IMG/VR virus record: IMGVR_UViG_3300033141_002325
Location: 1-46,238 of that record
DNA length: 46,238 nt
Strand: one strand, 5' to 3'
From: a virus
In this document: positions 3,508-8,405 of the stretch, piece by piece
How positions within the stretch are numbered: the first letter of the stretch is position 1
Layout: each line of letters starts with the position of its first letter
Made by a program: the position numbers and the translations under genes
Notes under the pieces: model-generated
What the model was told of the DNA's origin: nothing
What the model saw: only the letters and a program-made list of their open reading frames with translations
Databases searched by the model: none

Positions 3508-4017
3508 ATGAATAAAAATATGAAATACCATCACTCAATAACTGAAAACGGCAATCTTCAATTAAGAATAATCACCGAATATCAGGATGAAGAAGGTAAG
3601 GTCTTAGATAAGAAATACTCAGACCCCGTAACCCCTGCCGACACAAAAGACATGACAGGCTGGGATGATAAGTCTAAGGATATTGTTGAGGCGATAACTG
3701 ACCCGGATGTGAGAGCAGAATTTGAGTCACACCAACAACCTATTGGAACTGAAAGCTTTCAATCATTGACAACCTATGACAGAGTAATTGATGATTTCGG
3801 CAGAATATCAGTCAGGCAAATAAACAGAATCTTTGATAACGGTGAAGAGGTAAGTAAAAAATATCACCGAAGCTGGATAATGCCGGGGGATGACACTTCA
3901 AAAGCGGATGTGATAAGTAAGGCTGTTGCAGATAAACTGCATACTCAGGAAGTTATAGACGCATTTAAGGCGAAGATGGCAGAGTTAGAAATGGAACTGA
4001 ATATCAAAGAAAAGTAG
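3508..4017 (+). CDS. Hypothetical protein
   Basis: 169-aa ORF with RBS aaggagg 6 nt upstream of the ATG, packed tightly after the previous gene. Confidence 0.7.
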   Translation: MNKNMKYHHSITENGNLQLRIITEYQDEEGKVLDKKYSDPVTPADTKDMTGWDDKSKDIVEAITDPDVRAEFESHQQPIGTESFQSLTTYDRVIDDFGRISVRQINRIFDNGEEVSKKYHRSWIMPGDDTSKADVISKAVADKLHTQEVIDAFKAKMAELEMELNIKEK

Positions 4018-4029
4018 CGGAGCAGAAAA

Positions 4030-4233
4030 ATGACAACTGAAATTGAACTGGCAGAAATAAGAAAAGACCTCAAATACATTAGGGAAACTGTGTGTGAGAT
4101 TAAGACCTCAGTTTACGGTAACGGCTCAAAAGGGTTAAAGGCAAGGATGATTGAAGTCGAGATCAAGTATTGGATCATCTTGGTTTTGCTCGTTCCGGTT
4201 GAGATTTGGATAATTAGGGGAATACTAAATTGA
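4030..4233 (+). CDS. Small protein with a C-terminal transmembrane helix
   Basis: 67 aa with a hydrophobic stretch YWIILVLLVPVEIWII at the C-terminus. The stop directly abuts palindrome copy 1. Confidence 0.6.
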   Translation: MTTEIELAEIRKDLKYIRETVCEIKTSVYGNGSKGLKARMIEVEIKYWIILVLLVPVEIWIIRGILN

Positions 4234-4256
4234 CTATGGGGGATTTTTCCCCAAAG
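4234..4256 (+). repeat. G4-N7-C4 quasi-palindrome, copy 1
   Basis: CTATGGGGGATTTTTCCCCAAAG. It starts directly after the stop TGA at 4231-4233. The AAAG flank runs into aaagagga (SD) and the portal ATG at 4267. Confidence 0.85.
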
Positions 4257-4266
4257 AGGAAATGAA

Positions 4267-7200
4267 ATGCCTAATATAGTAGTAGGAAATCCAGAAAATG
4301 TTTATGCAGATTCTACAATATTAGATAAGGATCTAGGTTACGATTATCCTTATGGTCTCGACTTAAGGCCTGGTTCTAAGATCCATGATAAGATCAAGGC
4401 TGAGGTGATGACGAGGGCAAGAGAGAGTCATGCTCTTATTTCTAATCGAGTAGATTCGTGGAATCAGGTAGAGCGTGTAATGACAGCTTATGTTGATCTT
4501 TCTGAGAAAGAAGAAGACATTAAAAATAGTGATTCAAGAAAGCCTGTCTCAATAGTGTTTCCTTATACTTATGTCATTTTAGAGACAGTTCTTACTTATT
4601 TGATTACTGTGTTTCTCAATGATCCTATCTTTCGTTATAAAGGAAGCTCACCCGAAGATACTATCGGAACTATTATGCTTGAAAAGGTAGTTCAAAATCA
4701 AAGCAATTTCTTCAAAGTTGACTTGGCTCTTTATACATTTTTGCGTGACTCGTTAGTTTATGGAATTGGTGCTTGTGCCCCTGTGTGGAAAAAGAGAATG
4801 GGCATGAAGATCAGAGAAAGAAAGAGCGGATTGCTTGATTTCTTTAGAGGTCACGGAGAAAGGGTTTACGAAGAAGGAATTATCTATGAGGGTAACAAGC
4901 TCGAGAACATTGATCCTTATCTTTACTTACCTGATCCACGAGTTCCCTCACAAAAGATTCAAGAGGGTGAGTATGTAGGATGGATAGATAAAACCTCGAG
5001 AATGGCTTTACTTCGAGAGGAAAAGAATTCTGATGATATGTTTAATGCTAAGTACTTGAAAGCCATTATGATGAAGAGAAGTTCTATCTTTACGGCAGGT
5101 GAATCAGACAGAAATAAGAAAACTGGTATAAGTGACTATGCTTCTTATGACACAAGAATTCATAATCCCGTGGATGTCATCTATATGTATGTTGATCTTA
5201 TTCCAAAGGAATGGGAACTTGGGACGAGTGAGTATCCTGAAAAGTGGTTGTTTGGATTAGGGAATGATGGAATAGTTCTCAAGGCTAAGAAGCTTGGCCT
5301 AGCTCATGGGATGTATCCTATCGCAGTTGCATCTCCTGATTTTGATGGTTATTCAGTTCTTCCGCTGGCAAGAAGTGAGATGCTTTATGGAATGCAAACT
5401 GTTTTGGATTGGCTCTTTAACTGCTATGATGATCAAACAGAAGTTTTAACAGATACTGGATGGAAGCTTATTAAAGACGCTCAGATAGATAATAATAAGG
5501 TAGCGACAGTAGATCCTGAGTTATTAACTCTTACTTTTGAATATCCTAAAGAGTGGTTTGAGTATGATTATGAAGGGTATATGATGAACTTTAAGTCGTC
5601 TAATATTGATGTATGTGTTACTCCTAATCATAATATGTTTGTTAAAAGAAGATATGAGAGATCGGGAGTGTTTGACGAGTGGCAATTTAAACCAGCCGCT
5701 TTTTTAGGGGATACTGAATATAAGACTATTGGTAATGTTAATTGGAAAGGTAGTCAAGGTCAATCTGTTATTTTAGAAGGAGTAGCTCCTCTTAGAAATA
5801 GAGGAAAAAGACAAAGATACAAAGACGTAGAGATTCAATCTGATCTACTAGCTGGTTTTTTAGGATGGTTTTTAAGTGAAGGCTCAATAAGTCATGGGAA
5901 ATCTTCTGGTAGCTATGCAGTAGCTATAAAACAATCGAAAGGAGAAAACTATAAAGACCTTGATGCTATCTTTGATTCTATGCCTTTTCATGTTAATAGA
6001 ACTTATGACCTGAACAAATTTTCCTGTCAATGGACTATCACTGATAGACGTTTATACGACTGGCTGGAGAAAAACTGTTATGAGGGTGGTACAACAGGAG
6101 AATTTAAAAAAGTTCCTGGCTTTGTGAGAGACTGGGATGAATTTACTCTTAAGTTACTTTTTGATAGAGCTATGGCAGGCGATGGACATTGGATAGCTGG
6201 ACATTCTAATCTTGGTCAGTATGGTTCTAAGAGTAAACAGTTAGTAGATGATATGCAAGAAATAGCAATAAAATTAGGCTATTTCTCGCACATCCATGAA
6301 GGTAAAACACCTCTTGGAGATTCTTTTTATTCTCTAAATATTAATACTAGAAGTGTTTATCCTACGATTGCACCAAGAAATTGTTTTAAATCTAAATATA
6401 AGGGAAAGATCTATAGCTTTGAAAATTCTACGCATTTGACGGTGACACGTCGAGGAGGGAAAATAGCTGTTTGTGGGCAGTCTCATATAGCAAATGTCCG
6501 AAAGTCTATCAATGATATGCTAGTAGTTGATCCTTATCTTGTGAACATCGCAGACTTGAAAGATCCTGAGCCTGGAAAGCTGATAAGAATGAGACGTCCT
6601 GCTTGGGGAAAAGGAGTCAAAGACGCGGTACAGCAACTGATGGTCAACGATATCACAAGAGGAAACATTGGTGACTCTGCTATGATTGTTCAGTGGATGC
6701 AGAAGATAGGTGCGGCTGATGAGAGCATGATGGGAGCCTTGCGTCAGGGAGGTCCTGAACGTCTCACGGGTCAGGAATTTCAGGGGACAAGGGCAGGAGC
6801 TGTGGGAAGGTTGGAAAAGGTTGCAAAGGTTATAGGCTCGCAGGGAATGCGTGACATAGCTTATATGTTTGCCTCTCACAATCAACAGCTGATGTCGCAA
6901 GAAACTTACATTGATGTGGTAGGAACGTGGCAAAGTGAGTTGTCTGCTGTTTTTGGAGATGTTTCTAAGTTAAAGGTTACTCCTTGGGACTTACTAATCA
7001 ACTATGACGTGGTTGTTCAGGATGGGAGTACTCCAGGAAATTCGGATGCTAAGTCTTGGATTAGACTCTATGATGTTCTTTCCAAGAATCCTGAGTTAAG
7101 TAAGCAGTTTGATATGGTTAGAATTTTCGAACATATAGCTACTGAAATGGGAGCGAAGAATGTTCAAAACTTTAGAATCAATCCCAAAGTTGTTCCTGAC

Positions 7201-7275
7201 GAAGTTGCCATGCGGGAGCGAGAGAAGGGAAATATAGTTCCTATGGAAATGGGAGGAATGGGAGGTAGGATGTGA
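4267..7275 (+). CDS. Portal protein interrupted by an intein (extein about 649 aa)
   Basis: 1002-aa ORF upstream of the scaffold and capsid genes. Removing residues 386-738 joins ...TVLDWLFN to SHIANVRKSINDMLVVDP... The portal call rests on size and gene order only. Confidence 0.75.
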   Translation: MPNIVVGNPENVYADSTILDKDLGYDYPYGLDLRPGSKIHDKIKAEVMTRARESHALISNRVDSWNQVERVMTAYVDLSEKEEDIKNSDSRKPVSIVFPYTYVILETVLTYLITVFLNDPIFRYKGSSPEDTIGTIMLEKVVQNQSNFFKVDLALYTFLRDSLVYGIGACAPVWKKRMGMKIRERKSGLLDFFRGHGERVYEEGIIYEGNKLENIDPYLYLPDPRVPSQKIQEGEYVGWIDKTSRMALLREEKNSDDMFNAKYLKAIMMKRSSIFTAGESDRNKKTGISDYASYDTRIHNPVDVIYMYVDLIPKEWELGTSEYPEKWLFGLGNDGIVLKAKKLGLAHGMYPIAVASPDFDGYSVLPLARSEMLYGMQTVLDWLFNCYDDQTEVLTDTGWKLIKDAQIDNNKVATVDPELLTLTFEYPKEWFEYDYEGYMMNFKSSNIDVCVTPNHNMFVKRRYERSGVFDEWQFKPAAFLGDTEYKTIGNVNWKGSQGQSVILEGVAPLRNRGKRQRYKDVEIQSDLLAGFLGWFLSEGSISHGKSSGSYAVAIKQSKGENYKDLDAIFDSMPFHVNRTYDLNKFSCQWTITDRRLYDWLEKNCYEGGTTGEFKKVPGFVRDWDEFTLKLLFDRAMAGDGHWIAGHSNLGQYGSKSKQLVDDMQEIAIKLGYFSHIHEGKTPLGDSFYSLNINTRSVYPTIAPRNCFKSKYKGKIYSFENSTHLTVTRRGGKIAVCGQSHIANVRKSINDMLVVDPYLVNIADLKDPEPGKLIRMRRPAWGKGVKDAVQQLMVNDITRGNIGDSAMIVQWMQKIGAADESMMGALRQGGPERLTGQEFQGTRAGAVGRLEKVAKVIGSQGMRDIAYMFASHNQQLMSQETYIDVVGTWQSELSAVFGDVSKLKVTPWDLLINYDVVVQDGSTPGNSDAKSWIRLYDVLSKNPELSKQFDMVRIFEHIATEMGAKNVQNFRINPKVVPDEVAMREREKGNIVPMEMGGMGGRM
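5422..6480 (+). mobile_element. Intein with a LAGLIDADG homing-endonuclease domain (353 aa) inside the portal gene
   Basis: Block A is CYDDQTEVLTDTGWKLIKD (Cys1 at 5422-5424). Block B is VCVTPNHNMF. The two LAGLIDADG motifs are LAGFLGWFLSEGSI and LLFDRAMAGDGHW. Blocks F/G are KIYSFENSTHLTVTRRGGKIAVCGQ, followed by Ser +1 at 6481-6483. Confidence 0.85.
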
Positions 7276-7520
7276 CCTACAAGAGTAGTCCTAGGATGTT
7301 CGAAGAGTTTTTAAAATCTTCTCTTTGGGCAGATATAGATCATGAGTTAGACTTATGGCTGGAAGATATTCGACAAGCTTTGGAAAGTGCTGATGAGCAT
7401 ACTGCTCTTCTAAGACTTCAAGGAAGTGCGGAGTTTGTGAGGAAAGTGAAAAATCTTCCTGCGAACGTGCTAGAAAATATAAAAGAAGATATAGAAAGAG
7501 AAAGTAAGGAGGAAAAGTAA
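7272..7520 (+). CDS. Hypothetical small acidic protein
   Basis: 82 aa. GTG at 7272 overlaps the portal stop (ATGTGA), with ggagg 6 nt upstream. An alternative ATG lies at 7296. Confidence 0.6.
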   Translation: MTYKSSPRMFEEFLKSSLWADIDHELDLWLEDIRQALESADEHTALLRLQGSAEFVRKVKNLPANVLENIKEDIERESKEEK

Positions 7521-8405
7521 ATGGTTTATGATTTAAGTAAAGAAATTGATGAGATGATTGGGGTGGCAGTTGAAACCCCTGTTGAGACTCCACCTGTTGA
7601 AGAACCTCCGGTGGGGACACAAACTGAGCTTCCATTAGAGGAACCTCCTGTTGAGGAGCCTCCAGAAGTTCCCCCAGAAGAGCCGCCTGTTGGTGAGTCT
7701 CCCGTCGAGGAGCCCCCAATAGTTGTGCCAGAAGAGCCTCCCGCCGTGGAAGAGCCTTCAGAAGAAACTAGGGAAGAACTTCTAGATAGAGTCAAGAAGC
7801 TTACGGAAAGAGTTGAAGAGCTTACTATTTTAGAGCCTGTTAGTGTTGCTCCTGTTGAGGAGCCTCCTGAGAAACCAGTTGCAGTCGCGCCGGTGGAGAC
7901 ACCTGTCAAACCTGTAGAGGAAGTTGGAAATATTGATTTTCTTGGAGGTGCTACTATTGATGATGTGCTGGATAATAAAGAAGCGCTTAATAAGCTTCTT
8001 AATTCCGTTGTAGTGCAAGCATCTGGGACTGCTCAAAGAAAGGCTTATGAGAAGGTTTTACTTTCTATTCCTGATTTAGTTCTTGGACATATTAATAGAC
8101 AGTCAGTGATTACTAAAATGGTCTCTGATTTCTACGAAGCTAATGATGATCTGATTCCTGTGAAGAAGACTGTTGGTGCTGTTGCTAACACTGTTCACGC
8201 TGAGCATCCTGATTGGCAGCTTGAAGAAGTTTTCAAAGAATCTGCGGTTCGTACGAGGGCTGTCTTAGGTCTGAGAAAGAAGGTTGAGAAGAAAGAAATT
8301 CCTGCTATAGGTGATCCTGCTTTTGTTAAAACAGGAGGAGGAAAAACTGTGAAGAAAGTAGGGACAGCTCTTCAAGATGAAATAAACGAATTACTAACTA
8401 ATTAG
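7521..8405 (+). CDS. Scaffolding protein candidate
   Basis: 294 aa and very acidic, with about 12 imperfect P-V-E-E-P repeats in the N-terminal half. It lies between the portal and capsid genes. Confidence 0.6.
   Translation: MVYDLSKEIDEMIGVAVETPVETPPVEEPPVGTQTELPLEEPPVEEPPEVPPEEPPVGESPVEEPPIVVPEEPPAVEEPSEETREELLDRVKKLTERVEELTILEPVSVAPVEEPPEKPVAVAPVETPVKPVEEVGNIDFLGGATIDDVLDNKEALNKLLNSVVVQASGTAQRKAYEKVLLSIPDLVLGHINRQSVITKMVSDFYEANDDLIPVKKTVGAVANTVHAEHPDWQLEEVFKESAVRTRAVLGLRKKVEKKEIPAIGDPAFVKTGGGKTVKKVGTALQDEINELLTN

Follow-up and report, generated by a model that had tools for sequence, protein, structure and literature searches.

The portal gene of an uncultured tailed phage of ~45 kb, IMG/VR virus record IMGVR_UViG_3300033141_002325, raises a simple question: why does it encode some 350 residues more than a portal protein of its family, and what becomes of the surplus? 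Positions 1 to 46,238 of the record were analyzed as one window of 46,238 nucleotides. Comparison of the portal open reading frame (ORF) with its homologues indicates that positions 5422 to 6480 of the window very probably encode a class 1 intein, which occupies the highly conserved portal site LDWLFN|SH and carries a double-motif LAGLIDADG endonuclease that is probably active.

An exact insert in a portal gene

Close homologues found by searching a database with the entire protein fall into two length classes, ~640 to 670 and ~990 to 1020 amino acids (aa). When aligned with the window's protein (n = 37), the short class showed a clean gap of 353 residues and read LDWLFN|SHIANVRK across it, and among 120 homologues scanned for the motif, most of the 88 short ones showed the same junction. 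Because insert-less portals read through the site without a residue gained or lost, the boundaries at 5422 and 6480 are exact. The initial annotation had predicted both a portal ORF about 350 aa too long and the junction LDWLFN|SHIANV; the excess is exactly 353 aa, and the junction reads through precisely in the intein-less homologues. The exteins of the nearest insert-less portal (P0003) are 92.3% identical to the window's portal, and the DNA alignment with its locus (L008), the nearest empty allele, stops at 5420 and restarts at 6483. Chance is excluded as the origin of this pattern. An intron was rejected as well, as neither a stop codon nor a frameshift interrupts the coding sequence across the insert. 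Ser or Thr is native at the +1 position also in intein-less portals.

The identity of the host protein as a portal, proposed from the sequence at the outset, was confirmed by two lines of evidence. The interrupted protein matches Pfam SU10_portal (PF23899) with 32.3 bits (cutoff, 30), and this domain is present in all homologues of the ORF. Furthermore, the intein-less homologue P0003 matches PDB entry 8zkk_A, "portal gp5" (E value, 7e-67), which also keeps the WLF(N/D)|SH site. Among cultured phages, the nearest relative is the protein annotated as the portal in Desulfofustis phage LS06-2018-MD01 (42% identity).

The only public sequencing run in which part of the window is present, a sediment metagenome, contains a related-phage contig of higher depth that reads LDFLFN|SHIS in the region of window position 6493 and represents an empty allele. 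Low-depth, read-length contigs of the same run match the body of the window's intein; the run covers a small share of the window in such contigs, and none of them was seen to join the two sides of the intein. One sediment sample may therefore contain both occupied and empty alleles.

Splicing residues, fold, and the terminal glutamine

Conservation was assessed over 32 inteins at the same portal site, 35 to 71% identical to the window's copy, and the fractions given below refer to this set. The features of the locus are as follows.

4267 to 7275, plus strand: portal precursor ORF, 1002 aa, ~114 kDa, with Pfam SU10_portal PF23899
4267 to 5421, plus strand: N-extein, aa 1 to 385, with the C-terminal end ...MQTVLDWLFN
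5422 to 6480, plus strand: predicted class 1 intein with nested LAGLIDADG endonuclease, 353 aa, ~40.5 kDa, portal residues 386 to 738
5422 to 5451, plus strand: block A, CYDDQTEVLT, with Cys1 (portal C386) in 32/32
5617 to 5655, plus strand: block B, VTPNHNMFVKRRY, with Thr67 and His70 (portal T452 and H455), both in 32/32
5830 to 6363, plus strand: LAGLIDADG homing-endonuclease domain, intein residues ~137 to 314
5848 to 5886, plus strand: LAGLIDADG motif 1, LAGFLGWFLSEGS, with acid Glu153 (...FLSEG); Glu or Asp in 31/32
6154 to 6192, plus strand: LAGLIDADG motif 2, LLFDRAMAGDGHW, with acid Asp254 (...AGDG), kept in 31/32
6403 to 6447, plus strand: block F, GKIYSFENSTHLTVT, with His338 (portal H723) in 31/32 and Ser at F:4
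6448 to 6483, plus strand: block G and residue +1, RRGGKIAVCGQ and then S, with Gln353 (portal Q738, codon CAG) and Ser739 (TCT)
6481 to 7275, plus strand: C-extein, aa 739 to 1002 and stop codon, beginning SHIANVRKSI

Cys1, the TPNH of block B, the two LAGLIDADG motifs, blocks F and G, the terminal Gly-Gln, and Ser at +1 all lie where the initial annotation had placed them. Block B has the T-x-x-H signature, as (V)TPNH, and Arg343, Arg344, Gly346, and Lys347 of block G are present in all 32 inteins. The terminal Gln353 is found in 31 of the 32, the sole exception being P0004, which ends in Gly-Asn. Over nine DNA loci the Gln codon is CAG or CAA; since both synonymous codons are used, Gln is kept as an amino acid. 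The penultimate residue is Gly in 30 inteins and Ser in 2, F:4 is Cys in 28 and Ser in 4 (the window's copy included), and B:12 is Met, Leu, Ile, or Val but never Trp.

The predicted structure is that of an endonuclease-containing intein. The AlphaFold2 model of the insert, for which nine diverse members of the family were used, reached a mean predicted local distance difference test score (pLDDT) of 89.5 and a predicted template modeling score (pTM) of 0.89, and the top Foldseek ranks were taken by the endonuclease-containing inteins TliVMA, PhoVMA, PI-SceI, PI-TkoII, and PI-PfuI (E values, 1e-15 to 1e-10). In VIA-align, such inteins gave Z scores of 23 to 28 over ~300 to 326 residues, with TliVMA at a Z score of 28.1 and a root mean square deviation (rmsd) of 3.7 over 318 residues. 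The HINT part alone matched mini-inteins and the Hedgehog HINT domain in the same program (Z score, 15 to 18; rmsd, 2.1 to 2.7; 124 to 146 residues). Residues 137 to 314 matched the monomeric LAGLIDADG enzyme I-DmoI (Z score, 15.4; rmsd, 2.8; 156 residues). The pseudo-dimeric alpha-beta-beta-alpha-beta-beta-alpha endonuclease fold was found through this match and through Pfam, where LAGLIDADG_3 (PF14528) matches the insert with an E value of 5e-6. Likewise, the first ~90 residues of the insert match PHROG families holding intein-bearing thymidylate synthase and ribonucleotide reductase (RNR). Searching PDB sequences with the isolated intein yielded nothing beyond chance matches (E value, >0.3), and tblastn found no second intein copy in the window. 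The G+C fraction of the intein is 0.351, compared with 0.382 and 0.443 for the N- and C-exteins. Over the whole window it is 0.404, and the low value in the intein hints mildly at a foreign origin.

As Cys1 is invariant and Trp is never found at B:12, the family is assigned to class 1 and not class 3. The two other routes considered, a class 3 reaction with a block F nucleophile and C-terminal cleavage without Gln cyclization, are highly improbable, even though F:4 is Cys in 28 of the 32 members and a review allows for other mechanisms at Glu, Gln, or Asp ends (PMC4031507). Besides the invariant Cys1, four members including the window's copy have Ser at F:4. Class 3 inteins lack a nucleophile at position 1 and have a WCT triad of Trp at B:12, Cys at F:4, and Thr at G:5; as the window's copy has neither a B:12 Trp nor a Cys at F:4, the triad is absent from it. 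Class 3 and bacterial intein-like (BIL) domains were both rejected on the basis of Cys1, the +1 nucleophile, the conserved exteins, and the nested endonuclease.

The terminal Gln appears to be peculiar to this insertion site. HMMER was run exhaustively with the intein as the only query and returned 3761 cluster representatives at E values of ≤1e-10, in host proteins of many lengths, and the residue aligned to Gln353 was taken from the best 150 of these. Among these 150, relatives at other sites end in ...R-N-G-K-x-x-x-x-G-N, and the next residue is Ser, Thr, or Cys; among the hosts of such Asn-type relatives are glycosyltransferases and portals of other families (PF04860). Ends in G-Q were seen only in inteins preceding the portal motif SH..NV, save for two scattered Gln-enders elsewhere (P0228 and P0203), and Gly-Asn ends were found in the 115 clean full-length Asn-type inteins whose hosts are other proteins. 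Because relatives elsewhere end in G-N, the penultimate Gly is best regarded as a trait of the subfamily and Gln as derived in the portal-site lineage. The Gly-Gln end, initially described as non-canonical as a whole, is therefore special only in its Gln, the Gly being common to the entire subfamily including its Asn-enders.

A column-by-column comparison of 39 Gln-type with 115 Asn-type inteins identified residues that are near-fixed in the former and rare in the latter at positions 30 and 40, at the terminal residue, and at three consecutive positions of block F. The block F residues before and including the His read N-S-T-H (E-N-S-T-H) in Gln-type inteins versus V-P-N-H in Asn-type inteins, and a compensatory link between this change and the Gln is plausible from their co-variation. 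P0004 is nested within the Gln clade and retains E-N-S-T-H, so its Gly-Asn end is best read as a recent Gln-to-Asn reversion. UniRef names this protein "Putative ribonucleoside diphosphate reductase," a misannotation caused by the intein.

The change from Asn to Gln requires two base changes, with non-cyclizing intermediates. The shifts from Asn to Gln and from V-P-N-H to N-S-T-H could represent an adaptive retuning of branch resolution, with Gln performing at least as well as Asn, as in the RNR intein of Chilo iridescent virus (CIV), or else a slowed or conditional splicing that times portal maturation, but we regard such adaptive explanations as rather doubtful.

Several relatives of the intein were seen in other proteins. 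A high-GC phage contig (L002:2681-5644) encodes a 987-aa protein with an intein at 4001 to 5062 that is 29% identical to the window's, begins CYSDDTEVLT, and ends AGN|T; its host protein has a Cys-rich, zinc-ribbon-like tail (CPFCGG...CVQCG). The PF04860 portals P0125 and P0126 (~1270 to 1320 aa) each have two stretches matching the window's intein and seem to hold two inteins each, both ending in G-N. The glycosyltransferase-domain proteins P0124 and P0128 contain several intein copies each.

From these residues and the published pathway we infer how the element would splice and move. Cys386 would undergo an N-S acyl shift, aided by Thr452 and His455 of block B, and Ser739 would then accept the N-extein through transesterification. 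Gln738, in place of the Asn that forms a succinimide in other inteins, would cyclize to an aminoglutarimide, probably with help from the block F His723, and the 40-kDa intein would be released. A final O-N shift would yield the 649-aa portal (~73.5 kDa, as predicted), free to assemble. The first, second, and last of these steps are those of the textbook class 1 pathway (PMC4031507). The Gln-terminal inteins of Pyrococcus abyssi (Pab) PolII, Methanoculleus marisnigri (Mma) PolII, and CIV RNR do splice (PMC4031507; PMC8175363), and in the CIV RNR intein Gln works better than Asn (PMC4031507). In coinfections, the endonuclease would cleave intein-less portal alleles, and repair would copy the intein into them.

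Mobility of the intein and alternative readings

A maximum-likelihood tree was built from the exteins alone of 119 portals, leaving out the N-truncated fragment P0020. Intein presence changes 13 times on this tree, and no fewer than 12 changes are required by branches with strong support; shuffled labels gave a mean of 27.5. The window's portal is the sole intein carrier in a clade of 21. In three pairs of portals, of which one carries the intein and the other lacks it, extein identity is 100%, 99.85%, and 99.25% (compared at the protein level only); one of these carriers, P0004, has exteins 100% identical to those of the intein-less P0117 from the same "viral metagenome" source, and the other two pairs are P0011/P0109 and P0002/P0072. 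Among 80 viral-contig loci, megablast found no near-identical empty allele. The tree of the inteins places the window's copy together with those of P0002, P0004, and P0020 (SH-like approximate likelihood ratio test [SH-aLRT] support, 95), although the exteins of P0002 and P0004 sit in different, fully supported portal clades; the intein and extein trees are incongruent. In P0050, the intein is shortened to 321 aa (~30 residues lost) and both LAGLIDADG acids are gone, while the splicing residues are all kept, namely Cys1, T-x-x-H, the His of block F, and the C-terminal Gln. Such a copy resembles an intein whose endonuclease is decaying while its splicing residues persist, the stage expected late in a homing cycle. 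The patchy distribution, the near-identical pairs, the incongruent trees, and P0050 argue that the endonuclease is active now or was until recently, and together these sequence patterns indicate recent mobility and functional splicing.

Several observations weigh against a mobile, splicing-competent class 1 intein. NCBIfam intein_Nterm (TIGR01445) scores 14.8 bits, under its cutoff of 24.5, and Pfam Hint and Intein_splicing have no match in the insert. The profile support anticipated by the initial annotation was found for the LAGLIDADG domain and fell short for the intein profile. The penultimate His (G:6) is absent and replaced by Gly, and F:4 is Ser instead of the common Asp. In the Pab and Mma PolII inteins, Gln cyclization is slow and Asn is faster (PMC4031507). 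With respect to mobility, the nearest sampled relative of the intein is only ~70% identical, from which it follows that the donor is unsampled, and no co-conversion tract was detected against the nearest empty allele L008, identity being flat at 0.76 to 0.93 over both exteins.

The Gly-Gln end, the missing penultimate His, and the weak scores with curated intein profiles could also mark a decayed, splicing-dead intein, whose 353 aa would be a permanent domain in a functional portal or a lesion in a defective phage; the AlphaFold model of the precursor, which puts the insert on the outside at the end of a helix, would accommodate such a domain. Yet inteins without a penultimate His do splice (PMC4031507). 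Across 32 diverged members, the nucleophiles and the residues that assist them vary little or not at all, and the Gln persists despite synonymous codon change. Exteins that are 99 to 100% identical with and without the insert are not adapted to carrying it, and the spliced product is therefore expected to be a normal portal. The insertion site is a core portal motif that is invariant, and 40 kDa of extra protein there would presumably prevent the portal from folding or the 12-mer from assembling. We therefore consider splicing death most improbable.

It is somewhat less remote, but still unlikely, that the intein splices with an inactive endonuclease and that its patchiness stems from phage recombination and repeated precise loss and not from ongoing homing. 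Besides the lack of a co-conversion signature beside the site and the distance to the nearest relative, this explanation could draw on at least one family member with a decayed endonuclease and on the junction codons, as Asn and Ser codons (AAC/AAT and TCN/AGY) did not differ between occupied and empty alleles. Against it stand the catalytic acids and the full double fold, kept in the window's copy and in 31 of the 32 members, the three near-identical extein pairs that differ solely by the intein, and the incongruent trees. Furthermore, homing is far more probable than the precise removal of 1059 bp. An intein that splices, and that homes or did so until recently, hence remains the preferred reading.

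In the AlphaFold precursor model, a helix at 369 to 381 leads into the insertion site, and a helix of 41 residues spans 835 to 875. A long helix is typical of portals. Judged by the usual order of portal elements, the insertion site may lie near the stem/clip boundary, in a model that is of low confidence just past the insert. Genes around the portal encode a major head protein, tail or fiber-like proteins, a family A DNA polymerase, and a primase. Two ORFs on the minus strand, at 6520 to 6933 and 7291 to 7719 (137 and 142 aa), oppose the portal C-extein and the next gene and are probably spurious.

Relation to known inteins and significance

Inteins in portal genes have already been listed for mycobacteriophages and actinobacteriophages (Kelley et al. 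2016, PMC5050341; bioRxiv 10.1101/2025.01.02.630785), with five separate groups in the 2025 survey (bioRxiv 10.1101/2025.01.02.630785). As other metagenomic portal families also carry related inteins, the initial view of the portal as an unusual intein host does not hold. In contrast, C-terminal Gln was rightly called a minority variant, as it is rare yet splicing competent in other inteins (PMC4031507). An intein in a portal gene and a Gln terminus are thus both already known kinds of variant. The words "Gln" and "glutamine" do not occur in PMC5050341 or in bioRxiv 10.1101/2025.01.02.630785. Like the actinobacteriophage portal inteins, the window's element is of the mobile LAGLIDADG type, lies inside the portal gene, and is sporadic among related phages. 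Unlike the actinophage portals (IPR009279), its host protein is an SU10/VP1-like portal (PF23899) from an uncultured phage that is not an actinophage.

The window's intein shares Cys1, T-x-x-H, and the block F His with the Gln-terminal inteins of P. abyssi and Pyrococcus horikoshii PolII, M. marisnigri PolII, and CIV RIR1, as well as Gln in place of Asn, which presumably cyclizes to aminoglutarimide; with Pab PolII it also shares Ser at F:4. Unlike the Gln-ending PolII mini-inteins, it holds a full LAGLIDADG endonuclease. It further differs from published Gln inteins in its phage portal host, in the penultimate Gly and +1 Ser, in its mesophilic source (a sediment metagenome, which is a weak habitat hint), and in that Gln is fixed over a whole mobile lineage with its own block F, E-N-S-T-H. 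In common with TliVMA and PhoVMA (7qsu, 7qss, and 7qst), PI-TkoII (2cw7), PI-PfuI (1dq3), and PI-SceI (1vde), it has a HINT domain that is interrupted by a LAGLIDADG nuclease of the double-motif type. However, identity to these solved inteins is only 12 to 16%, the window's element is shorter (353 aa), and, unlike in PI-SceI, no separate DNA-recognition region is evident. Among inteins of GenBank phages, full-length identity to the window's intein reaches 27% at most; as no close relative is found there, the lineage has so far come only from metagenomes.

For annotation, these results resolve a 1002-aa "hypothetical protein" into a 649-aa portal and a 353-aa intein. As curated intein hidden Markov models nearly miss the splicing domain, such elements are undercalled in viromes. 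The family provides ~40 diverged natural mesophilic Gln-terminal inteins, a natural revertant (P0004), and hundreds of Asn-type cousins, a set suited to asking what makes Gln cyclization efficient. Alleles that are 99 to 100% identical except for the intein suggest that the element is now moving among environmental phages, and the product of the gene that it occupies would need to be spliced before any virion forms.

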